From: Balamuthia mandrillaris
Taxonomy: Eukaryota
Assembly (NCBI GenBank): GCA_031835245.2
Contig: JAVKOQ020000081.1
Coordinates: forward strand, 174,816-194,815
Reading direction: 5' to 3'
Length of the DNA stretch: 20,000 nucleotides
Every line of letters starts with the position of its first letter. The first letter of the stretch is position 1. Positions 1,972-20,000 of the stretch are shown here, in pieces. Under the pieces are notes generated by a model. That model ran no database searches. It had not been told where the DNA came from and saw only the letters and a list, made by a program, of their open reading frames with translations. The position numbers and the translations under genes are program-made.

Positions 1972-4900
1972 ATGTCACTCACTACTGCTGCTACTGCTGC
2001 TACTTAGGGGAAGAAGAAAGAGCAAAAGAAAAGCTCTGGGCATAAATCGGGTGGTTCGAGCGGCGGCAACACCAGTGGAGAGGCGGTCACGAAGCTGTTA
2101 GAAAAGCTTGACACGATCCTAGTCTCGGTTCGTACTACTTTTTTGATGTTGTTGTTCTTTGATTTAAACACTCGCTCTCTCATCTGTTTTATTGTTGTGT
2201 TTGTTTTTTCTTTCTCGTCGGTCGTTTCGTGGCTGCCTCTCCCTTCCTTGTTGTTTCTATCTTGTCGTTTCTATTCGCTAGCGTGCATCCTTGTTGTTTG
2301 TTTTCATTGCTTCCTTCTTCTGACTTTACGAACGCTTTTTTTTCCCCACAATACAGGATGAAGAGGAGGAAAGCGAAAGCCATTCTTCTGGCGGCAAGAA
2401 CACACCAAAAGACATTCCCAAAATGGGACCATACAAGTACGCTCTCTCTCTCTCTCTCTCCCTCCCGCGCTCTCTCTTCTCTCTCCTCTCTCTCTCTCAC
2501 TTTCCTCTGCTGGTTTCTTCTCTAAATGTTTGTTTGTTTTGGTGTGCCATAGAGAATGGATATTTCTACCAGATATAAAAGTGAAAGGAGCACTGAAGGC
2601 GGATGGTGAGGCTATTAACGGCCCCGTGGATGACTTGACTAATCAAATGGAAACTGTACATAACGTAGCATCAGGGCTTGCGATTTCTAGTTATCCCAAA
2701 GGAGTTAGTGCTTCCCTTCCCTCTCACATTGTTCTTTTCTTGCTCGTAATAGGGGCACTGAAGGTGCTTTATATTACTGAAACTTAAACAGCAAGGAGAA
2801 CCCATTTGCGACTTTTTTATGTTGGAGCTGTTCGAAAGGCGGAGCTTGGTGTGTCTGGCTGATGGTTGCTCTTGGGGAGAGGCTCCTCGTCAGGCTGCTC
2901 GCAAAGCTGCCCACGCTTACATGGAATATCTTAAGCAGAATTTAGAAAGCATCACTGACATACGGTTTCTCCGCCTCTCCCTCCCTCTCTGTCCCTCTTT
3001 CTCACTTTTGTACTTTGTTTTCTTTGATTATTCAAATGTGCAGAGAAGCTGGCCGCTTGATCTTGCGCGCTTTCTACAAAGCTCACACCAAAATTGTGGA
3101 AGGATACACCGAAGTATGGGATGCAGGCACTACCACTCTATGCGGAGGCATCATGTTGGAGTTGGACGAGAAGGATGCAGAGATGTTGGCTAAGCTTCGC
3201 GGAATGACTACCCACAACACAACCCATCGCAAGCTTTTTGACACTTCCTCCTTTCAACAACTGTATCGCTTGTATGATTCTGATTATTGCAGCTTGAACA
3301 TCACCATCCACAACAACTGCACTTCACCACCTTCTTCTTCTCCTTCATCATCATTATCTTCTTCGAATCATAAGAACGGTTCTCCCAATGTGCAACGCAA
3401 ATCAGCAAACATTAGTCCTTCCCAGTCCACCAGTGCTTCTTCATCATCTTCTTCCTCCTCAAACAAAGAAAAGAAGAAAGAAACAACAAGGAGTAAGAGC
3501 AGAGCAAACTCGAAGAACTTGGCAGAGTTGCAGATGCTGCAGCAACGACAAGCGAACGATCCACGGTGGGTCTTTGTCTGCGCAAGCGTTGGTGATTGCA
3601 AAGCGTTTCACTACGACAACAAAACGGGGTTGTTCACGGACATAACGGAGGGCAATCGCACCAATCTCACCGATGCGAAGGACCCTGGCGGTCGTCTTGG
3701 TCCTCAGGTTCAACCGGAAGGCGGTCCTGATCTACGAAATTTGGTGGCTTTCTCTTTTCCCTATTCTTGTTTCTGCTCCTTTCTCAATTCTTTGTTTGAT
3801 TGAACCCCTTTTACTCATTCTTATCCTTGTATTTGAAATACAGGCGTTGTACTTTATTCCTTGCCGCGATCAAGACATTATCTTTCTGGTATCAGATGGA
3901 GTGCATGACAACTTAGACCCCCAAAACTTGGGAATAACGCCCGGCCATTTAGGCTTGAAGTACAGCACATGGGAAGAGGCCGAGAAGCAAGACCTGCGAC
4001 TCGCTGATGAGACCAAAAATCAGTTCAGGATTCAATACTTGAACGATATCATTAAAAAGGGTACTGCTATTCTATTCTGTTTTATCTTTTCTCTTTTCCT
4101 TTTCTCAACATTTTTTGTATATTTTTTTTGTGTCAACCAAACAGCAAAGCGAAAAGGAAGCCCATTGACCCCAGCGCAACTGGCGGCGCAAGTAACGTAT
4201 CATGCCTACGCTCTAACGCAATCGAGCCGACAGTTTATCGAGAACAACTCCCATGCTCGCCTCCCGGAGGACTACACCCTTTATCCTGGCAAAATGGATC
4301 ACACCTCTTGCGTCGCCATTTTCGCTGGTGGTTTGACCTTAGAAGGAGGTAAATAACCTTTTCTCACTTCTATTCTTTCGGTGAAAATGTTTTGTATAGT
4401 TAACGTTTTTCCTCTCGCTGTTCTCCTTCTTTCTTTAAAGCCTCATTGGAGGATTCAGAAGAGCCTTCCGAAAGCAGCAGTACCGAAAACCTCCTCACCC
4501 AGGACACTTTCTACCAAGCCATCCCCCTCACTACCTTCCTCGACTCTGCTTCTTCTGCCTCTTCCGCTTCTTCCACAGCATCCTATTCCACCTCTCCATC
4601 CGCCGTGGCTTTTCACAACAACTATAGCAACAGCATTAGTGATACAGCTTACAGCAAAATTCCTGTTCACTCGCCCCGAGGTGAAAAATCACGACAACAA
4701 CAGGCCCAACAACAACAGCAGTTGCCTCGCTTGAAGGCCATTCGTTGTTATAACATGGATCAAGAGCCGCTGGCGGAGATCCATGCGGTTCCTTCTGATA
4801 CTATCCACAACATCATTGCGAAGATCAAAGATGTGCGTCTCTTCCTCAATCTCTATTGTCATTCTTTCTTTTTTCGTCGTTTCTTGTCTTTCTTGTCGTT

Positions 4901-5553: not shown

Positions 5554-6280
5554 TCATCCAAACATGCCAAAAGGCGCAGCACCTCCAGAGGGGGAGATGG
5601 AGAGCTCCTCCTCCGCCACCGCCACCAAATCCGCCATAGCGATGCACCTCTTCTCCGGCTCTCTCCTCAGCGCCGCGAATGCGGCCGCCTTGTAGCAACA
5701 GTTCTTGATGACCCCTCCGCTGAACGCAAACTTCTCCGCCAGCTCCCTAAAGTCAATGTCCTCCTTCAGCGGCGCTTTCGGCGGCAGCAGCTGCCGCCAG
5801 AGCTGTTCCCTCTGAGCGACATTGGGAAGCTCAAACTTGACGGCGAAGCGGAAGCGACGGAAGAAGGCCTGGTCGATGGTGTCGATGAGGTTGGTGGTAA
5901 GGATGGTGATACCAGGGAAGCGCTCGATGTGATAGAGCAGGATGGAGGTGTCGAGGTTGGCGTAACGATCGGTGGAGCTGCTGGGATCGGCGTGGCGGGC
6001 GCCAAAGAGCGCCTCCGCGTCGTCAAAGACCAGGATGGCGTCCAGGCTTTTGGCCTCCTTGAAGACCTCCTCGATGTGTTTGCCGGTCTCGCCGACGTAC
6101 TTGTCGACGAGTTGGCTGGCGTTCACCATTTTGAGGGGTTTGCCGGTCTCAAAGCCGATGACCTCTGCGGCGAGCGTCTTGCCGGTTCCTGGCGGGCCAT
6201 AGAACAGACAGGTGGTGCCTTGATCGTTGAACGTCTTCTCGGAATAGCCCCATCTGTTTGTCAAAAAGAAACACATGTGA

Positions 6281-6317
<37 letters not shown>

Positions 6318-9272
6318 AACTATACTCGGAGAAAAGGATTTGACTGGCTTTTTCCATTTGGATGATTCTCTCCAACTGTCTGAGCACCTCCGGCGTGGCA
6401 GTGATGTCCTCGATACCCCTCGTCGGCACTATCCTCCTGTCAAAGTCCACCATGGCTAACCTTCCTCTCAGCTGGTTGATGGCGCCTTGCTCCAAATCCT
6501 TTTGGGTGATGACAGGATCGTCTCCTTCTCTGGTGACGGCTTGGGAGAGGGCTATAAGAATGGCATTCTTGATGAAGCCACCGGTTAGCTCGTACTTGAG
6601 AGCGAGCCGCTGAAAGTCAACATCTTTGGCGAGCTTGACCATTGGCGGCATCAAGAGGCGCCAAATGTCCGCTCGCAAGTGGGGATCTGGTTGTCGGAAC
6701 TTTTTCATGCAGAGAGAGAGAGAGAAAAAGAAGTGAGAACACTAGACATAAGACTAATGAAAGAATGGAAGAGAGAAAGAGAGAAAGAAAGAGAGAGAGA
6801 GAGAGAGAGTTCAGTGGGGCAGGACGAAACCTCAATGGCGAGTGTTATGCGGCGATGCATTGCTTCATCCAAGTCGAAAGCTCTGTTGGTGGCCATTATC
6901 TGTTTGCCAGATTTAACAAGTTAACATCTGGAGGAGGACATGTGGATAGGAAGGGCAGGAGGACAAAGAGGAAAAGAAACAGAAAAAGAGGAAAGAAGAA
7001 AACCATACAATGAGTCCGTTATGTCGCTCAATTTCGGTGAGGAGCAAGTTGACACCACTTGCAGAAGTTTTATCTCGGGACATGAAAATGGTTTCACATT
7101 CATCTTTGTTGTGTATGGAGAAAGATGAAAGAGTGAGCAAAGTATCACCGGTTTCTATTTTTTTAAAGTGTTAGAAAGCGGTACGTACCGAAGAAAAGGA
7201 CAGAGTCTGTCAGTTTGGCCTCTCGGAAGATGAACTTGATAACGTGGTCAGCTTGCATAAATCCCAGCGATGGATAGTTGATCAACAGGATTCGTTTATC
7301 TAACATTGCAGCCACTATAAAAAGAAGCGGACAGAAATAAGTGAAGAAGAAGACAATAGAGGGAAAGGGAAGAGATGAAACGCACAAGCGTTGGCCATCA
7401 TGGTTTTTCCAGTGCCACTCTTTCCAAAGAATAACAACAACATGCCAGAACCGTAGGCAATCTGCCATACAGAAGAAGGGAAGTAAGTTTTAACTAAAGA
7501 AGAGAGAAGAGAGAAGAGAGAAGAGAGAAGAGAGAAGAGAGAAGAGAGAGAGAACGTACTGTGTCACCGACGGACAACTTTTTAGAGATGCTGGTAAACT
7601 TATCAAAGTTGCGAACAGTGTTCACAATCAATGACTTTTGATCTTCGGGTAAAATGACAGATTCAAGCTTTACATTTGGAGTGTACCTGGCCAATAACAA
7701 GCGTCTTTAGCAAAGAATAGCTCTCAAATAGAAGAGAAAGAAAACGAAGAAGAAGAACAACAACAAGCATAAAAAGAACATGAAGAGCTTACAAATGACT
7801 GCCTTCCACCAATTCTGAAAGCTCAGAGTCAAGACCAACAATGAAATCCAACATTCTTCTATCCAGCTCAACGTCCGTGTTCATCAGTTCTCTGTCTGTA
7901 GTTTAAGTTATTTAAAAGTAAGCATTTATGTATAGACTTACAGAAAGAACTGAAAACAAACCCCATGTGTCAGACAAACGGATGATGCCTTCTCGCACCA
8001 GCCTTGCGTTCTTGTAAAAGTAACTGTTTTGAGCAAACCAAAGTGAGAAATACATACACAGTTGTTCCTCTCTCTCTCCTCCTCCTCCTCCTCTCAGCAC
8101 TCATTTTAGTACCTTCTGTTCTTCAGCTCTTCTTCGAAAGAGTTGCAAAAAGTGCTCAATAAAGCGCCAACGTTGAAGTTCTCCACATTCGTGGAACGGC
8201 GATAGCGAGACGCGTCCGGAGATATCTTTGGAGAGATGACATTGGCCACCAAAGTCAAAAGGATCAACCGCTCGAATGGTTCCAGGTTGAGACGCAACGC
8301 CAGTCGTTCCAGGCGAGGAAGCCATTTGCCTGAGTTGCGGGCCACTGTCATCTGCATTCATTTAACTTGGCGTTAAACAAAAATAAAAGAAAAACCAATA
8401 AAACAAAACGTACAGCAACTCTCTTCTCGCATTTGCCTTTCAACATTCGTTCCTTCGCTCTCAGCTCCCTCAACTGCAGCTCCTGCTTGGCATCATGATC
8501 CAAGTCCTCCTCCCTCTCTCTTGCCATGTTGATCACTCGCAACTTAACAGCCAACCAGTCGATGTGATCCGAAAGATACTGAACGTTGTTGGTGTAGGGA
8601 GACAGACCGGAATCATCTTCTTCGCCAACTTCTGTCTTTTTCGGTTCATCATCTGCGCTTTGAAGATATTCTTTTTCCATCATCACTTCCATTCGAAGAA
8701 TATCAAAGATGTCTTCTTCCTCTTCCTCTTTTTCCTTCTGCTTTTGGCTATCCTCAGAACCGGAGTCAGCATCAACTTCCTCTTTACTCTTCTCCTCGGC
8801 ATCGTCGTCGCCTTCTTTGTCTTCTTCATCGTCACTGCCTGTTTTGGAGGTGGAGAGATTGGCTTGGGAGCTGCGTAAAAGTTTGTACTTCTTGCCAGCA
8901 ACATCCTCTTCGCAAACAACCTCTGCTAAAACGGTTTTGTCGATCTTTAGTTGTTGTTCCTCTGAGAGCTCCATTCCCGCCTTTGTTTTTGGTGTCACCA
9001 GGGAAAACAAAGTGAGAAAGGGGAGAGCTGAGAGAACGAAGACAAGAAAGGTGGAGCATGAAGAGACAAAGAAGAATAAAGAAAAGGATAGTTACCAGGA
9101 CGCCAGCTGTGGTATAAGGGATCTTGAAGGAATAACTGGAGACAGGATCGTCTTCGTCAGGACTAAGAATGCCTTCCTTGACGTGCATTCTCTCCGCAGA
9201 AATAAAGTTCAAACCTTCACTCAACGTCATTTCGCAATACTGCAAACAAAAATGTGTGAACAACTAAGCAGC

Positions 9273-9313
<41 letters not shown>

Positions 9314-9948
9314 AGAAGAAGCAGAAGAAGAAGAAGAAGAAGAACAAGAAGAACAAGAAGAACAAGAAGAACAAGAAGAACAACAACAACAACAACAAGA
9401 ACAAGAACAAGAAGAAATTAGAAGTTACAAACATTGAGCATGCCATTGAAGTAAAACCCGGTGCCGTCAAACAACATGTCGCCATAGGTGAGCACCACGA
9501 ACGCCATGGCATAGGTCTCCTTCTCGCTGAGCTCCAACCGTTGGGCCAACCGCACGCAGCGCGGTTGCAACGCCCCCGTCCTCCTGTGCTGCTCCAGGCG
9601 AGCCTCAATGAGGTACTTGGCGTAGGCGTGCAGCCCGCGCAGCGCCTCTATCAGCCGGTTCAACTCCTCCACATCCACTCCCTTGGCGCTGCCGCCTTGT
9701 TGCGTCGTCTCTTTCTTTGGCTCGCTGAAGACCTTTCGGAGGTTCTTCTTGGCCTCCTCCCCGGCGGACCAGACCTCGAAGACGGCGTTGACGGCGGCCA
9801 GGTAGTCCATGTCCCGCAGGAAGAGGGCCTCGGGGGAGCGGGTCAGCTCCGTCCAGGACTGGGGCCGGAGGCAGTAGGGCAGCTTGGGATAGTCCCGAAG
9901 GAGCTGTTCCAGAGTGGGCGGAGGGAGGGTAGAGAGGGGGTCGCTCAT
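5554..9948 (-). CDS. Tandem (D1+D2) AAA+ ATPase, ~1065 aa, bacterial-like COG0464/Afp15-Pvc15-type; exons 9948-9433, 9239-9096, 8980-8414, 8351-8113, 8023-7962, 7895-7793, 7686-7560, 7461-7386, 7314-7189, 7103-7009, 6899-6831, 6699-6326, 6253-5554
   Basis: The spliced ORF is 3198 nt. D1: FFGKSGTGKT (Walker A), VLFFDECE (Walker B), MATNRAFDLDEAMHRRI (sensor 1/Arg finger), YELTGGFIKNA. D2: FYGPPGTGKT, VDKYVGETGK, LVFDDAEALFG, DRYANLD, ILTTN, IDQAFFRRF, FAFSGGVIKN. All 12 introns are GT-AG with consistent phases. Confidence 0.9.
7498..7553. repeat. Intronic GA-rich microsatellite (AGAGA/AGAGAGA units)
   Basis: Visible directly; lies within AAA intron 7559-7462 (-). Confidence 0.85.
9266..9417. 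repeat. Compound intronic microsatellite (GCA)n-(GAA)n-(CAAGAAGAA)n-(CAA)n in intron 1 of the AAA gene
   Basis: Visible directly; lies within intron 9432-9240 (-). Confidence 0.9.
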
Positions 9949-10645
9949 TTTTCTGTTCCTGTTTCTTTGTTTGTTTCTCTTTTTTTTGAAGAAGAAGAAG
10001 AATGGACAAGAGAACAAGGAGAACAAAAAAGAAACAGGAAAAGTAGGCTTGCTGCCGCTTGAGCGAAAAGACGGACTCAGAGGCACCACCGGCGGCGTTA
10101 CGGCCCTCTCCTTCTGCTAATTTCACTCCATTTCTATAATTTTTCTGATCGATCGATCTACTCCTTGGCCAATGAAAATTCAAAACCGAGGGACATCGGA
10201 CCAATCCGATTTCATAACGTGGATATTAACCTTCCATGACGACGCGAAAATTGGCTCGATGCATGCTTTGTCCGCAAAAAATACAGCGAAAGAGAAGAGA
10301 GAGAAGAGAGAGAAGAGAGAGATCGACTTGACCACCCGAGAGCGATTTGTTTTTTTTAAAAAAAAAACAGCCACCACCACCACCGCAGGGGTTGGCGGTA
10401 AAAACAACGAAAACACCCAAGGTAGGAGGAGGCACGCTCATTTTTGTTTTTTGTTTTTTTGATGAAGCGCTACCCCCTTTTTTTTTGTTGTTCAGTTTTT
10501 TTTTTATTATTAATAGATTTTTATTATTATTATTTTTTTTGGTTTTAGTGAAAAAGAGAACAACGCACGGTACGAAGAGCGCAAAAGGGAGTGTGTTTGT
10601 TTTGGTTTTTTTCAAAAAAAGCCTTGAGTCTCTCAATCCTACGCC
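9949..10645. promoter_or_regulatory. Divergent (bidirectional) promoter region between the AAA ATPase and UBR4 genes, with three CCAAT boxes
   Basis: Start codons point away from each other at 9948 (-) and 10646 (+). CCAAT at 10169 and 10201, ATTGG at 10250. Confidence 0.55.
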
Positions 10646-10699
10646 ATGGAAGCTGATCCCGACCTTCTCTTGGCTATCGCTTTGTCCGAGTCTCTAATG
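10646..10699 (+). other. Putative ubiquitin-interacting motif (UIM) forming the whole first exon: [18 protein letters not shown]
   Basis: Matches the UIM consensus (acidic patch, then L-x-x-A-x-x-x-S). It is followed by a GTACGT donor at 10700. Confidence 0.65.
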
Positions 10700-13600
10700 G
10701 TACGTATTGTTTTTTGATTTGATGTTTTGATTTCTAATGTTATTTTTAATTGTCTTGTCAGGAAGGAAAAGGTGAGTCTGGAGAGGATGCTGGCTCCTCC
10801 ACCCCTGCTGCTTCGGGCCAGCAGCAGTCCTCCTCTGGTTCTGCTGCTGCTTCTTCCTCCACCGCCGCGGCCGGTGCTTCCGCTTCTACCGATACCTCCC
10901 AGCCTTCTATGATCGTAGAGGTGTGTTCTCCTTCTCCTTCTCCTTCTCCTTCTTTCTTTTCTTTTTGATCTTACTTTTGTCCGAAATAATAAAAAACAAA
11001 GGAACCTTCGTCATGGAAGGAGTTGGTAGAAGCGTTAGCAGAAGCCGCCACCGAGGAAGAAAAAGCGGCATTGTTCTTTGCGGAGGACCGCTCCTCCCTT
11101 TTAGTCCCTCTCGCTTCCTTGCTGGCTTCGTTCCCGCTCTGTTCTCCCAGCGATGCCCAGTCACCTCTCAGTCCTGAGCAACTGTCCTGCATACTTGTCA
11201 TTTTGGAGGCGCTCGCCCACCACATTGCAGCTTGCGATTGGAAGTCATGTTCGTACCTCTCTTTTCTCACCCGCTCTTCCTCCATCTGTCTCTACCTTTC
11301 TTTATTCCTCTCTCGCTCATTCTTTGGTGTCGATACAGCTAAAAGCAACAAAGCGCCCTCTCTGTTCTCTGAAAAAGAGAGCAACAATATTGACGACAAT
11401 GTTTTGAAGAACAACCTCAGTGTTGTAAAGAAGACCTGCAAAGGCATGCTGAAGCTTCTGTTGTGTGTTCTGGCCACCACAAATAACAACAAACAAGAAG
11501 ACGGATCATCACAGACTACACATGACAAGGACACCAGGGATACAATCTTACGGATCTTTAAATGCCTTTTGCAAGGCAAAACTGACAAGTCTTCGGTGGC
11601 CACAGTTTCTGCCCTTGTTATCTCTCTTTCTCCTTCTCAACTGGCTTCTCTGCCTCCGCTTTCTGTAGACGAGGAGGAAGATGTGATGGGCAAGTCGGTT
11701 CCCAAAGAGTCTTCCGGCGCCTCGTCATCTACTTCCTCCTTGTTGAAGGATGAAAAGGAAGGGGATAACGACATGATCACCATTATAGAACGATTTTTGC
11801 GCCCAGACGTTCAGCTTTCATCTGTTGGAGAAAGAAAGAACACTCTGCGTAAATCTTTGCAGTTGCCATCGTCGGCTGCTGCACTGCAACCTACCCTCCT
11901 CCAGTCCAATGCTCGGCACTTTTTCAACTTCTTTGGAGGTTTCTTGCTTCCCTTCTTCTGTTCTCTAGTTGTTCTCTTGATCGGCTAACTGAAATCATTT
12001 TTTTTTTCTTTGCATCAGTTTCGGTTATGGCTTCGTTGTGTGGCTCGCTGATTCTCGGTCTGGAAGGGAACATCGAAGATGAGAAGGGATATATGGACTT
12101 GAGCGAACGTATCAGCTTTGTGAAGGAAACGCTCAATCTGCTATTGTCTCCATCTCTCCATTCTCCTCCCATACGTACGTATTCTGTCTTTTTTTTGGTC
12201 ATCTCATTATGACAAAAGCCAATCATGTGCATTTCTTATTTTATGCTGTTAATACAGACATAAAAGACTGGAGCGCACTTGCATGGTGCCTGCACCTTCT
12301 CCATCGTGTTCTCCAAACCCATCGAGCGGAGCACCGTTATTTAGAACGACTGGAACCTGCTCGACAAAAATCAACAAAGCTTCTTGTAGATCGTTTGGTG
12401 CGTTTCCCTAAATCAACCAAATCCCAAACTGCAACGTTTATTCTAACCGTATCGCGTTTTTCTTGATTTGCTTATTGGATTTTCTTTTTTGGTGCATTAG
12501 TTGATTGAGAGTGTGCTCACTCTTATCTCCCGCCTGCAAGCGGGACACCCAACAGACGTTGATGTAATCACTAATGCACGTGTATTGGTCATTCATACCA
12601 TCCTGCACACCATCAACTCCCATCGCATCTCTCTCCAAAACTTATTAGAACATGGGGTTACATTAGAAACGTGAGACTGCTTTTTTTTTCTCACTTATGT
12701 GTTTCTTCTTTTGCTTTTGCATTAATTCTCGTAATCTATATAGCGAACAACGCTCCTATAGCCTGCTCTCTTTGACTTGGCTTGCTTTAGACCTTATCTC
12801 GGTGCATTTGGAACAAACCAACAACAAGTCCTCCTCACTGAAATCGGCTCTTCCAGAAACAGAAGCTACTACTCTTCCGCCTTATCTTCAGGGCCAACAG
12901 GTGCCGTCTACCTCCTTTTCTCTGCAACAACAGACGGACAAACCAGAAGTTAGCCTTGATTGTCTCAAATCCTACGACCCGGAAACGCTTTTCCAGTTCA
13001 TTTTTGGTCAAAGTGATGATTCCAATTTTCTTAACTCTATTTTTGCCCTTCTTGTAGTTTGTTTCGTTTCCGTACGTTCTTCCGTTTATATTTTTTGATC
13101 TTCTTTTGTTGATGGATATACTAAACCCAATATACGAAAATAGTGCACAGTCAAACCTGTTGAAGAGTCTTCAAAATCCTATTCGCCTGTTTATTCCCCA
13201 ACCTCGCCCAGCTACTCCCCTACCTCTCCTCGCTATTCTCCTGCCTCTCCTCGCTATTCCCCTGCCTCTCCTCGCTATTCCCCTGCTTCTCCAACCTACT
13301 CCCCTTCGTCCTCTCTTTTTGATGATGACGAGCCTATTGCTAGCTCCACTGCCACTTCTACTTCTGCTCCTCCTCCTTCTTCCGCTTCTGCTCCGTCTGA
13401 AACTGCTACAGAGTCCGCTTCGGATAGACGAAGAAGCGCCATTCTTAAACTTTTCAATACAATGCGTCTCTCTGGACGTGTTGCCTCCTCTTCTTCTTTA
13501 TCCTCTGCACCGCAAGAGGCGGAGGTTAAGAAGACGGAAAAAGAAAAAGAAGAGGAAGAGGAAAATGATGACGAAATTCTTCCCTGTTGGTTTGGAGAGG

Positions 13601-16600
13601 AGGAAGACGAAGAAGAGGAAGAACCAGTCAAGCGGAAGGAAAGCGAAAGCGGAAGCCACAAATCCCTCCGATCATCACGCTCAAGAACCTCTTCTTCCTC
13701 ATCTTCTCCTTCCTCTTCTTTCTCTTTATGCGCCTTTTGTGAACAGGTTTTCCAATTCTTCACCACCAATTTGTTGAACAACGAAACTGCTTTCAGCCAT
13801 TACTTCCAGTACGTTTTTTTTGTTTTGGATTCCGAGTTTTCTAGTTGTTTCTTTATGCTAACCCTAAACCTCTTATTTTCTTTTTTAGGGCTACTTTTGC
13901 GAACAACACGAATTACATTGATTCAGTTTTGATGATGGCTGAACATGCCTCGCCCGCCTCCCCAGCTTTGGAGGAGAGCCCATCCCACAGCCGCCGTGTT
14001 GTGGATGAGGACCTCTTACGTGCTTTCCAAACGTTTGTCCACCATTTGATCGTTCAAGGCTTCCTTTCAGAGGTGACCCAGCAATACATTGCCACTCGGC
14101 TTGGATTATCGGCAGCAACACCAAGCGATAGTGGGTATCCGATGTTTATGCCGGCTCAGCATCTCTTCATCTTGGCGCGCATGTTGCTCAAACGACAAAG
14201 CTCTGTTGCTCCTTCTGGAGACGAAGACTCGCTTAGTGCAAAGCTTTGGGACGCTTTCTTGACTTCCTTTAATTCAGCTCTATTAACCTCTGAGCAGAGG
14301 GATGAGGTTGGTTTTCATATCTCGTTTCTCTCGCTCTCTCGTTATTCTTTCTCTTCCCTCTCATGTAATCATGTATTTTGTTTTGACTAATGTTTTTTTG
14401 GCTTGACGACAGACCAAACTCTATATCAACATTGAGCATTTGGAAGTCCTTCTCTTTGTGTTCCATAGTTTGTCCACACAAACTCGCTCTAGGCTGTTCA
14501 ACAAATGTTTGGAAATTGTGAGCAATACCCAGCAACTGCCCTCCGCACTTAGTCCCTATAAACTGCTTTTGCTTGGCAGATTAGTGCAACTCGTAGAATG
14601 TACGTTGTTCTCGTTTCTCTCCCTCACTTGTTATTCTTTCTCTCCCTCCTCTCTTCCCCTCTCTCTCACTCTCCCATTACTCATCATAACTTTGAGATAG
14701 ACATGTGCCTTCATTTCGAGGGACCATCTCAGCACCTCATTGGAAAATTGGAAAGAACTTTGTTCTCTACTTCTGCCATTCCCTCCGGCAGTGGAAGCCA
14801 TCAAAGCGCGGATTGGTTCAAATACGAGCTACGAAGCCGAAGCGATTTGGACGATCGAGATGCATCCTTCTCTTCCGCTGCCAAGTCTTTGTTGGTCAAT
14901 CCATCAACCGGTTCTTACGACACTTTGTTCAACTTGTTCGCTAAACTGCTTTCCTACGAGGGTGTTCTTCCCCCTCAAGCCACCATCGACGATCGCTCCC
15001 TGGATGAGCAAGAGATTTCCTCCATTAACGATCATTACTTTTCTGTTTGCTGGCGATTCGTTTGTGCTCTTCCCTTTTCACCCTCCTTCCAACACTGGTT
15101 GGGATCTCCTGAGAGCGAGACCCACACGCCAGCTTTTGTAACGCAGCCCTCCAATGCCACACTTCTATATCTCAATGCTTTGGCCTTCATCGTCACTTCT
15201 TCTGCTTCCACTTCTGAAGTTTCGAAGCAAACTCCACCTGGTGATGCGGAAAAAGAGAAAGAAAAGGAAAAGGAAACAGTAGCAACGTCTAAGAAACAAA
15301 AGAAGAACCTTCCGTGGTTGCCTTCGATCTCAGCCGCCCAACTGACAAACCATTTCAAGCTTTGTCTCAAGCTACTAGACAAAGTTACTGAAAGTAATGG
15401 TGCATATTCTTACCCTGTCTCTCTGCCTCTGTCTCTCTGTCTCTCTGTCTCTCTGTCTCTCTGTCTCTCTGTCTCTCTGTCTCTCTGTCTCTTGTCTCTT
15501 GTCTCTCTGTCTCTGTCTCTCTGTCTCTCTGTCTCTTTCTGTCTCTCTGTCTCTCTGTCTCTCTGTCTCTCTGTCTCTCTGTCTCTCTGTCTCTCTGTCT
15601 CTCTGTCTCTCTGTCTCTCTGTCTCTGTCTCGTTGTAAAATATTTACCGGCCTATTGCTTCCACAGCACCGCAAACAAATTTTGCTCTTTCTGGTATGAA
15701 CCGTCGCAGCGCACTTGTGGCTTGCTTCGCCTCCCTATTTCAAGCGTTAGTGCAAATTCTCCCATCCCGATTGCGCACTGCGGAACCTCAGCAGTCAGCC
15801 ACCGCCACTGCTGGTCCTCTTCGGGATGCAGCACAAGCTCTTCTTGTTGGCGAGGTCAATCAAGATTTCCAGCGACAACTTGTATCCAGCTTGTTGGCTA
15901 TCCTCTCTCGTTATGCTAGGCTTTATCGCAGTCTTTTCGTGGACGTACTCAAAGAAGACCAAAACGAGCAGAAGGAGGAGCATAGAACAAATTTGGCCAA
16001 CATGGTCTCTGGTGCTCTTTCTGCTGGAATAAGCAAAGCGAACGTGCGCAAAGCTATGAAGGTTACCTTTTATTCTGCCATCATCAGTTATTTAAACAAG
16101 AACTAACCACTTTCATGCTAAAGAAACTTGGTTATAGTGATGACGTCGCCACCATAATGTTGCATTGGGGCGGAGACCAACTCTCCACTAAGAGCAGTTC
16201 CGTGAGAACAAAGTTGTCATTGTCCTCCTCTTCCAAGGAGAAGAATAGAGAAGGAAAATTGCCTGATGATCAACACATGGTTTGTTTATTTTAGAAACGA
16301 TATGTTTTGCTCTGCTTTGCTTTGTTTTTTTGTTTTTTGAAGTGATAGTTCTAACATTTTAATGTACTCCATTTCCTCAGATTTATAAGATTGTTTTGCG
16401 TTATCCCACTGAGAACCAAAGCAGTTCTTCTGCCATGGAAAGCATACTGCGAAGCGTTATGGAGCTGATGCAAGCTGTGCACGATACTATTTCTCCCCCT
16501 TCTGAGCAAACTACAACTGTCTCCGCTGTGGACACGAAGCAAAGCGTTCAACCCATTGCAGGATTGAAGGAACAACTACTTGATTTATCCAACGACTCGC

Positions 16601-19600
16601 GCTTTGAGTTTTTGGACCATCACGCGTGGGTCACCAAAGCTTTTCAGACTTATAACCTCGACTACTCCTCTCTTAAGGTTTCTCGCTCTCTCGCTCTCAC
16701 CTTCCAATCAAGTAAATCTCATCAAGTGCTTCTCATTAAACAGGATGAGCATAAGCTTCGATGCATTCATCAATTTCTTTCAAGCATTGTGAGCCTCACA
16801 GCAGTGGATCTTAAGCGCTTCAACCCAGTCCTGAGGGAGAGTGCCGATTTTGTTAACTGTCTGTTGGATGGGATCCAAGAACATGATGGAGTTGATGCAA
16901 TGGATACCGAAGGCACAGCAGCTACAACCCCGGGCACTCCTCCTCCGCCTCCAGCTCCCGCACCTGTTGCTGTCAAGGGGAAGGAGAAAATAGCAGCATC
17001 CCAATCTTCTTCACTCTCTTCTCCTGCTACTTCTTCTGAATCCATTTGCAGAACGAAAGACGCTCTTTGCTCCGTCTATTCTGCCCCTACCAGTGTGGAT
17101 ATCTCGCAGTTCATGGCTGTTCTAGCCAACAATCATTCTTCGGTGAACACCAACGTGCTTCGCTTGCTCGTTCGTTTGGTGTCTTTCCCATTGTCGGAGA
17201 AAAGAACCTTAGCTGCTGTGCTGGTTTCTCGATTAGCAACATGGAGCGATGCCGCATTGACGTTATGGTTTAGCAGCAAACTTGCTGCCTATTCAGCAAG
17301 CTCCCTCTCCGAAGCCAAAGGCAAAGCTCCCGCGACGAGTTCGGAGGACACCAAAGAAGCCATGCAACTGGTGGAGTCTTCGACTGAAGAAGAAAGTGCT
17401 CCAAAAGGGCGATACATAGCTACTGAAGATTCCGTGAGGAACTTAACAGTACAGCTTATTGCTGCTCTGATCAACTTTGGAACAACTGAGCAAAAAGAAG
17501 AAGAAAGCGAAGATAAAGCGGAGATGATAGGATTTTCACAGAGATTGTTCTCCTTGCTGCTTTCACAACTGGCTCCTGCCTTCCTGGAATGGGGAGTAAT
17601 GCTGAAAGAGTACCTCTACACGCTGTGGATGCTCTCCTCCAACGCCAATAAAGGACTCACGGAGGAAGTACGACAATCCCAACGAAACGCCTTTGTCTCG
17701 GCCATTCTCTCTCTGATGAGCTCTCCTTCCGTCACAAAGCTTCCATCTCTCACCACAGCTCAGCTACATTCTGTGCATTTGTTGCTACACTTTTTGGGCG
17801 GAACATTGGAGCAATGCGTGCCTCACTCTGTGCTAAGCGCGGAGGGACGAGCATCCTCCGCAGTCTCTTACCTCGCTGAGGCTGGTGATTCGTCAGCGCA
17901 ACAAAAGCAATTGCTCATGAAGAAGAAGAAGAAAAAGCAGAGGCAGAAGACGCAAAAGGAACAAGCACAGAAAGAACGGGAGGCGCGTGCTCTGGCTTCC
18001 ACTCTGTGCACCTACACCTCCACAGGCTCCAACTTTGAAGACCAACATTGGTACTACTGTTACACTTGCAAGCTTACCTTTACGGAGGGTTGCTGCTCCG
18101 TTTGTGTGAAGGTCTGCCATCAAGGCCACGATGTGTCCTACTCTCGTAAGAGCAGTTTCTTCTGCGATTGTGGGGCTGGGGCGTGCGCTGCCATCACTCC
18201 ATGTCGTGCTCTCCAACCAAGACCTTATGTTCCCCCTACAACAACAACTTCATCTGATGCCAATGACTCTTCTTCATCACCGTCTTCTTCGCCTTCTTCT
18301 GCTCTGTCTCACCTTCACGAACAGCAACCAGTGACGAAGATAGACAAGGCAACATTACTTCAGCTGCGGCAACAGCAACTTCCTGCAACCATTTTTGCTC
18401 TTTACCGTCAACTTCACGCCCTGTTAAAGCAACAGACGGAGAACGACCAACAGCAATTGTCGGCGTCTTCCTCTGGGAAAGACTTTTTCTCTTCCAAGAA
18501 GAGCATCGTCTTCATCGACAAAAGCCTTAGGGGTACTTCTGGCACCATCCAACACAAGAGCGTTGGCGAGTTCAAGTTGGCTAGCTCCATCCGCGCGGGC
18601 GCCTTTGATACCAAGCTGAGAATGAAGAGCAGCGACAACAGTAAACACCTCAAGACCCTCATCCAAGCAGGCGCTTTGACAAGGAGCGCCCTCGCCATGA
18701 ACGGCATGGGTCACGTGGCCATTGCTGAGGGCAACTTTGTTACTGTATTGGATGCTCCTCAGTTGTTACGAAAAGACAGCCCCAAACCTCCTTCCACGGA
18801 GCAGGTGTTGGACCCGAGCAGTGCCCATACGTTGTTGTCCAAGACGGAGATGCCTCATGAAGTGGTGTCCCTTGTGTTTAACCCGTTCATGTTGCATCAT
18901 CACAATTCCTTCCTTGCAGTGGCTGGTTTGCGAGGTTGTGTTGTTCTCACTTTGAATTCACGGTACGAATTCTCTCTCTCTCTCTCTCTCTCATTTAGTT
19001 TAACAATGATTGTGTTTGGTGTGATAGGGGTGAGGTAAAGGAAGAGCTGGAAATTCCTCTGGGTCTTGAGTTTGGTGGCAACGACGTTTATGTCTTGCAA
19101 GTGCAATGGGTACCCGGCGCTGAGGTCAAGCTCGCCATCATCACCAACCGCTGGATTAAAATTTACGATCTCGCCAAAGATTCAATCAGCCCTACCCACT
19201 ACTTCACTCTCTTGGAAGATACTGTGTTGGGGGATGGAGTGACTTTCCTCACCAACCCGAAGAGTGGCATCACGACCATGCTTGTTCTTTCCGCCTCTGG
19301 TTTGTTGTACAGACAACAATTGTTTGAGGGAGCGGACGGCGATGAAGGAGCTTGCATTCTAACCGAGACCATTCAAGTGCCGGCCTATCTCAAAGGCAGC
19401 CGTGGAGCCTCTGCCCATTACTCTCCTCACATGCGCCTGCTCTTCTGCACGTATCATGACGGTGATGGTAATGGCAAGCAAAAGAGCTTTGGTGGCCGCT
19501 TGGACGAGTCCCACTCAACTCTTGTTGGGGCATTCCCCTTGCCCTCTGCTGCTTCCGCTTCTTCTTTGACCAACAGTCGCAGCAATAGCAGCAGCGGTAG

Positions 19601-20000
19601 ATCATCTACCTCCTCCTCCTCAGGAGATCGCCCTCTGCCCTACAATCATTGGGTGGACACTCCCGCTCACCAGCAATTGGGACCCAATGCAGGGGGAACA
19701 CCGTGCGCCAGCCTTTTGGCCCTCACCCGCAAAGCTACCACCGCTCTGCACGTGAGCGTTCTGCCCGATGCCATTTACGTGCAAACCCTGAGAGCGGCTT
19801 CTCCCTCCTCCGCCTTCTCTCCGCTGAGGCGTATCGAAGGCCTCTGCACCTACTCGCAGGTGCCAGCGGCGGAAAATAACTTGGGCAATCCCTCTCACTC
19901 TGCTCTCATCCTTTTGGACGATGGTAGCTTGCATCGTTGGGACTTAGTGCCCGCTGCTGTTGGTGCTGGAGCATCCGGTACCCCGGAGAAAGTCCCTTCA
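10646..20000 (+). CDS. UBR4: UBR4/BIG/p600-like giant N-recognin E3 ubiquitin ligase, 3'-truncated by the window edge; exons 10646-10699, 10762-10920, 11002-11248, 11339-11938, 12019-12174, 12258-12397, 12501-12670, 12744-13071, 13144-13808, 13889-14306, 14413-14599, 14701-15399, 15667-16061, 16124-16279, 16381-18962, 19028->20000
   Basis: UBR box [21 protein letters not shown]...[18 protein letters not shown]...FFCDCGAG. Downstream beta-propeller motifs typical of UBR4/[61 protein letters not shown]. Upstream UBR4-like segment [16 protein letters not shown]...[13 protein letters not shown]. Exon phases are consistent over about 2643 codons. A few donors (13072, 15400) have nearby in-phase alternatives. 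Confidence 0.92.
13180..13317 (+). repeat. Coding 21-nt tandem repeat encoding RNA Pol II CTD-like heptads: [46 protein letters not shown]
   Basis: Direct translation from the acceptor at 13141-13143 (TAG|TGC ACA GTC...). This frame is continuous with ORF 13462..13932 and with the spliced UBR4 frame. Confidence 0.9.
15415..15631. repeat. Intronic CT/CTGT compound microsatellite with ~18-nt higher-order period
   Basis: CTCTGTCTCTCTGTCTCT-type units fill UBR4 intron 15400-15666. Confidence 0.9.
18007..18180 (+). other. UBR-box zinc finger (N-degron recognition domain) of the UBR4 homolog
   Basis: Cys/His pattern C...HWYYCYTC...[13 protein letters not shown]...FFCDCG in the 16396..19038 ORF. 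Confidence 0.95.

Follow-up and report, generated by a model that had tools for sequence, protein, structure and literature searches.

A ubiquitin ligase gene of the UBR4/BIG family in Balamuthia mandrillaris encodes, inside one exon, five tandem heptads resembling those in RPB1's C-terminal domain (CTD), RPB1 being an RNA polymerase II subunit. The array is transcribed and in frame, lies in a loop of variable length, differs in copy number between isolates and is unchanged at five core positions. It is an add-on rather than a core part of UBR4, and we favour the reading, at a probability of about 0.45, that it is a lineage-specific, likely selected phospho-docking array of CTD type. The following features were located in the window, the whole stretch of 20,000 nucleotides that was analysed.

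10646 to 20000, plus strand: 5′ part of the UBR4/BIG gene, with 17 coding exons in the window and continuing past its right end (Pfam, RNA joints, open spliced frame, PDB match).
13144 to 13808, plus strand: ninth coding exon, with the array and a long loop rich in Ser, Pro and Glu (joints 13071>13144 and 13808>13889 in RNA reads; spliced contig).
13180 to 13191, plus strand: partial unit YSPV (sequence).
13192 to 13296, plus strand: five CTD-like heptads, residues 635-669, forming a 21-bp tandem repeat (sequence, repeat scan, Pfam).
13240 to 13260, plus strand: one repeat unit absent in the X3 and X11 contigs, which have four heptads against five with the frame kept (contig comparison, translation).
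13297 to 13317, plus strand: degenerate sixth unit YSPSSSL (sequence).
13567 to 13593, plus strand: acidic-hydrophobic-WF motif closing the loop (like motif in insect and Luapeleamoeba homologues, by inspection).
13992 to 14306, plus strand: Pfam E3_UBR4_N match, part of the N-terminal helical scaffold (Pfam, PDB match).
18028 to 18183, plus strand: UBR box (Pfam zf-UBR).

The gene was identified as UBR4/BIG by the E3_UBR4_N match (E=1.6e-9, 36.2 bits, cut-off 25.1), and a zf-UBR match (E=1.8e-7, 31.6 bits, cut-off 25.2) indicates that the UBR box is present; this box is 76% identical to that of a homologue. The exon after the one carrying the array matches residues 672-792 of human UBR4 in a PDB entry (E=4e-6). 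The protein shares with human UBR4/p600, Drosophila Poe and plant BIG (SIFI complex) an N-terminal helical scaffold, a UBR box and a downstream propeller region; the C-terminal hemi-RING and the DOC/ZZ modules would lie past the right end of the window. Its closest homologue is from Luapeleamoeba hula, followed by those of Pelomyxa and Mastigamoeba. The N-terminus (10646-10699) is kept in the homologues of all three, and resembles a ubiquitin-interacting motif (UIM); a Pfam search of this N-terminal motif gave zero matches. Upstream on the minus strand, head to head with UBR4 across a gap of about 0.6 kb, lies a gene of several exons (5554-10116) for an AAA ATPase whose N-terminal part is winged-helix-like. 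Two further genes resemble by eye mitochondrial ribosomal protein L3 (3-1492, spliced) and a PP2C-type phosphatase (2362-4356); those of their exons that were scanned singly gave no Pfam match.

The initial annotation had placed the array in an exon at 13144-13808, and RNA reads and contigs bore this out, the exon being spliced in and the frame kept. The upstream joint, 13071>13144 (GT..AG), was found in six raw RNA reads from all three raw-read runs and in one contig, and the downstream joint, 13808>13889, in seven RNA reads from two of the three runs and in one contig. A spliced contig from set X5 spans 13000-13071 and 13144-13307 with zero differences. Altogether 13 UBR4 splice joints, all of them GT-AG, were seen in the RNA data of three raw-read runs plus a contig set; in the gene model these 13 are supported by reads, and the first two introns and the last were set by GT-AG and frame. 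Once joined, the exons give 2,621 codons uninterrupted by a stop. Among the UBR4 introns the longest, of 267 bases, contains an 8-base tandem repeat in 27 copies (15415-15626).

In the spliced protein, residue 635 is the start of the first exact heptad and residue 669 the end of the fifth, in agreement with the five in-register heptads originally described; the flanking partial units YSPV and YSPSSSL are likewise present in the translation of 13180-13317. Y1, S2, P3, S5 and P6 are identical in all five units, and variation is confined to heptad positions 4 and 7. The exact consensus occurs in one unit of the five, and three units end in Arg. The array scores above the cut-off of Pfam PF05001 (34.5 against 20.3 bits). 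When the exon peptide was shuffled 20,000 times, a procedure that does not model tandem duplication, YSP[TAS]SP occurred 0.002 times on average and once at most, against five observed. Positions 4 and 7 are the tolerant positions of the CTD according to PMC13377220, and the same tolerance was seen in 4,988 heptads from 120 RPB1 proteins (the best 120 of 1,575 matches to the array region, all RPB1). In register, in its fixed Y1-S2-P3 and S5-P6, in where it varies and in its PF05001 score the array is like the RPB1 CTD. It resembles a short CTD and carries the yeast functional unit as defined in PMC3646058, with three SP pairs inside nine residues and a spacing of seven between tyrosines. It is unlike the RPB1 CTD in being internal to an exon, in a ligase loop and not in a C-terminal polymerase tail, in having 4-5 units against about 20-52, and in its three Arg-ending units, Arg7 being rare in RPB1 tails (71 of the 4,988 heptads). 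Four to five units is also below the minimum that supports transcription, 9-11 in yeast or 17 in human, according to PMC13377220.

In homologues, the place of the array is taken by a loop that a conserved helix precedes and the acidic-hydrophobic-WF motif closes. Its length is 43-45 residues for three insects, 99 for Luapeleamoeba and 148 for Balamuthia, in which Ser makes up 26%, Pro 11% and Glu 13% of the loop; because of this composition and this range of lengths it is probably disordered. The Luapeleamoeba loop contains scattered SP/TP sites and no tyrosines. Conservation of the heptads among UBR4 orthologs had been put forward in the initial annotation as a point to check: the hexamer Y[ST]PxSP was absent from all 51 UBR4/BIG records examined, which are all distant and include no close orthologue, the blocks of the nearest (Luapeleamoeba) being 25-38% identical outside the UBR box. 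Of these records 21 align to the block just past the loop, one of which starts too late to hold the loop, so that some 20 span it. One homologue search ran under length limits that shut out close relatives' full-length UBR4, and a later one gave 30 candidates. By this absence the Balamuthia array is set apart from human UBR4/p600, Poe and BIG.

Differences between the five units are silent at the core positions in six cases and replacements in none, against an expected silent share of 0.29 (P=6e-4), in a test with a bias, since it was CTD likeness that singled out the array. With the degenerate sixth unit included, there are seven silent changes and one replacement (P=1e-3). All three replacements among the five units fall at positions 4 and 7. 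Between isolates, the array has two silent variants and no replacement and the next 129 bases two silent variants and six replacements (Fisher P=0.13; site-based P=0.014), among the variants listed, counts that are incomplete, contigs dropping single variants. We consider it likely that the array is selected. The silent diversity between units may, on the other hand, have come along with an RPB1 fragment that was copied.

The DNA of the array is a tandem repeat of period 21 with 4.8 copies and 87% matches. Units 3 and 4 are one base apart, and units 2-4 differ from one another by 1-3 bases. Five units are kept in contig sets X1, X5 and X12, and in X3 and X11 (two of the five sets) exactly one 21-base unit is missing. 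Since copy number differs between isolates, slippage or unequal exchange is active at this site. Collapse during assembly was considered as a source of the 21-base deletion and is unlikely, the longest exact repeat (26 bases) being shorter than the 31-letter words; the deletion may represent a single allele in a heterozygote. In the interval 13278-13446 two haplotypes with nine differences are present in X1 and X5 at a depth of about 2:1, which suggests either a heterozygote carrying more than two copies of its genome or a mixture of strains. The use of different synonymous codons had originally been taken as a sign of constraint on the protein rather than slippage. The silent excess at the five core positions speaks for the first half of that proposal, and the varying copy number contradicts the second; constraint against slippage is therefore a false choice.

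The closest competitor to a selected docking array is a near-neutral passenger, in which a tolerant loop received a short copy of the species' own RPB1 tail DNA, or slippage multiplied a heptad that had arisen by chance, the product now drifting without function. The lack of the array in every homologue examined, the variable loop length, the near-identity of units 2-4 and the unfixed copy number all agree with this, as does a window full of coding and intronic repeats (74 rows), and copying from RPB1 would yield a CTD-like silent pattern without any selection in UBR4. Against it, the array contains no replacement among the listed isolate variants and its flank six, and a bias of such arrays towards ligase-type proteins, described below, would not be expected. 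No second contig covering the five heptads at 80% likeness was found in any of four runs, in which tail repeats may be filtered or unassembled, and this is weak evidence against a recent RPB1 copy. We regard the passenger as somewhat unlikely.

A generic multisite switch would instead be a selected Ser-Pro cluster for a cell-cycle CDK, MAPK or DYRK, acting as a phosphodegron or charge switch for UBR4 with no role for tail readers. UBR4 has 45 SP/TP sites in its 2,621 residues, and 12 of these are concentrated in the 46-residue array region; the Luapeleamoeba loop has such sites without tyrosines, and Arg7 places a basic residue next to both serines, all as a switch of this kind would have it. 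The invariant Tyr at exact seven-residue spacing is left unexplained, and this is the defining feature of CTD reading (PMC13377220, PMC3646058). Such a switch seems to us quite unlikely. An artefact, whereby the stretch would be intronic, out of frame or an RPB1 misassembly, is refuted by spliced reads and contigs from several samples that are in frame with UBR4 flanks, and by X3, in which the whole stretch lies within one 5.9-kb contig.

We also compared the array with non-polymerase proteins known to engage CTD readers. In Trf4, Sen1 and Mpp6 a CTD-like peptide in a disordered region binds a CTD-interacting domain (CID) (PMC7110113; see also PMC4186968). Each of these proteins uses one acidic, phosphorylation-independent motif whose binding is proven (PMC7110113); the UBR4 array consists of literal tandem heptads, a putative binding site. 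The known substrate sites of human UBR4 are the central DOC2, ZZ and UBR modules (PMC12286842) and not the loop that bears the array in Balamuthia. Searches of the open full-text literature, covering listings and the openings of abstracts, turned up neither a description of heptads in UBR4 nor one of CTD arrays serving ligases as a module.

To look for CTD-like arrays outside RPB1, a library of 1.84 billion representatives (clustered at 50%) was searched, giving 770 matches, of which the best 150 were examined. Among these 150, 62 are RPB1 by motif or Pfam, one more is RPB1 by a weak Pfam match, and about nine more are like RPB1 outside the repeats; the Pfam scan covered 102 of the 150, the other 48 having clear RPB1 motifs. 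Around 60 non-RPB1 matches have no other domain, and many of them are like RPB1 last exons. Fourteen non-RPB1 proteins among the best 150 have another Pfam domain above cut-off, and eight of the 14 combine the heptads with a domain of ligase type:

P0070 (Mytilus): MATH protein.
P0097 and P0167: BTB proteins.
P0113: ankyrin-SOCS box protein.
P0160 (Saponaria): RING-vWA protein.
P0163 and P0165: RING proteins.
P0164: IBR protein with a weak RING.

The other six have TPR/KOW/RRM, vWA (a homologue of P0160), FHA, helicase, RNase H and CD225 domains, three of them with 0-2 strict heptads. Eight of 14 corresponds to a binomial P=9e-8 at a background of 5% and 3e-4 at 15%, both backgrounds being assumed, and ligase-type families are fast-evolving and over-represented in a library clustered at 50%. 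P0158, ZNFX1-like by eye, was entered as non-ligase; ZNFX1 itself presumably has ligase activity. A protein combining MFS with a piece of RPB1 (P0066) is probably a fusion in the gene model and was excluded; including it would make the count 8/15. Five proteins that look F-box-like or vWA-like by eye (P0064, P0133, P0128, P0127 and P0129) were left uncounted without Pfam support, as was P0143, with a Pfam E of only 0.09. Four proteins (P0070, P0071, P0124 and P0059) are called 'RPB1' or 'RPB1-like' at their source, yet have no polymerase domains and share the repeat only.

A metagenome scan gave at least 121 loci, 52 beside RPB1, 66 not, and three not strict. Domains were scanned in 41 of the 66 non-RPB1 loci, the other 25 being near-pure repeats, RPB1-tail look-alikes or duplicates. 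This yielded three distinct proteins with another domain, one with SAM and two with RING and a TRAF finger, the TRAF finger scoring above cut-off and the RING below. The RING and TRAF-finger family (L051:2235-3710, L092:179-1654 and L067:322-1611) is 22% identical, with 3-4 CTD heptads near each C-terminus. Viral contigs contained 19 loci, and controls with a scrambled unit or with 8-residue spacing gave none; low-complexity sequence does not commonly produce three heptads in tandem. At least 12 of the 19 viral loci (L001-L019) are giant-virus RPB1 ending in true heptad tails. Heptads outside RPB1 were seen in L006 (zinc-finger-like by eye), L007 (glycosyltransferase 90) and L009; none of the three clear non-RPB1 viral proteins is of ligase type. 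Prokaryote genomes gave eight loci in 596 billion bases, three of them strict (L141, L144 and L146). These three lie on short or binned contigs and are probably eukaryotic or giant-virus contamination; L144 resembles the C-terminal part of RPB1.

These counts, together with the controls, indicate that the arrays are bound up with organisms that have polymerase II and with the viruses of these, and that they occur repeatedly outside RPB1. On small numbers, the non-RPB1 arrays lean towards ligase-type proteins. The other ligase-type carriers (P0070, P0160, P0097, P0167, P0113, P0163/P0165, P0164 and L051/L067) are like UBR4 in that heptads are joined to a domain of the ubiquitin system, and unlike it in belonging to unrelated domain families, mostly single-member clusters with 4-16 units; the literature searched contains no characterisation of any of them. 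The earlier suggestion of a CTD-like module on a ligase is favoured by arrays on unrelated ligase-type proteins in both library and metagenome.

If the array in UBR4 is indeed a selected docking array, a 21-base repeat would have expanded in a variable loop of the protein in this lineage, with selection likely keeping it. On the N-terminal scaffold the loop, presumably disordered, would lie exposed, and the Ser2 and Ser5 of the array could be phosphorylated by the proline-directed kinases responsible for marking the polymerase tail (CDK7/CDK9/CDK12 type, or DYRK); given the preferences of these kinases, Arg7 would provide DYRK with an RxSP site. Readers of phosphorylated Ser-Pro, such as Pin1-type WW proteins, CID proteins and SCP/FCP1-type phosphatases, might then dock on the ligase, either as regulators or as substrates carried to the ubiquitin-transfer centre. 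This would call for nuclear access of UBR4, at which one basic run near residue 1953 only hints. The natural alleles with four or five units, together with the shortness of the peptide, make function of the array cheap to test.

UBR4 is best known for N-degrons and for silencing of the mitochondrial stress response. Provided that the array is functional, a giant ligase engaged in quality control has gained, in one lineage, a handle read by the transcription machinery. A broader reading is that ubiquitin ligases and their adaptors have repeatedly and independently acquired copies of the polymerase II tail as a module, a phosphorylation-gated bait that would draw CTD kinases, phosphatases and readers to the ligase for ubiquitylation, with this amoebozoan UBR4 as one case. 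Stated jointly for UBR4, RING, RBR, BTB, SOCS, MATH and RING-TRAF proteins in protists, animals, plants, fungi and giant viruses, this is speculative and on balance unlikely. At a practical level, proteins automatically named 'RPB1-like', such as P0070, can be carriers of arrays and not polymerases. The UBR4 array itself is restricted to one lineage, and the wider pattern among ligases is the part most worth pursuing: should the array work, the return of such arrays on unrelated proteins of ligase type would suggest a mode of substrate choice not yet described, in which the polymerase tail has been copied as bait.
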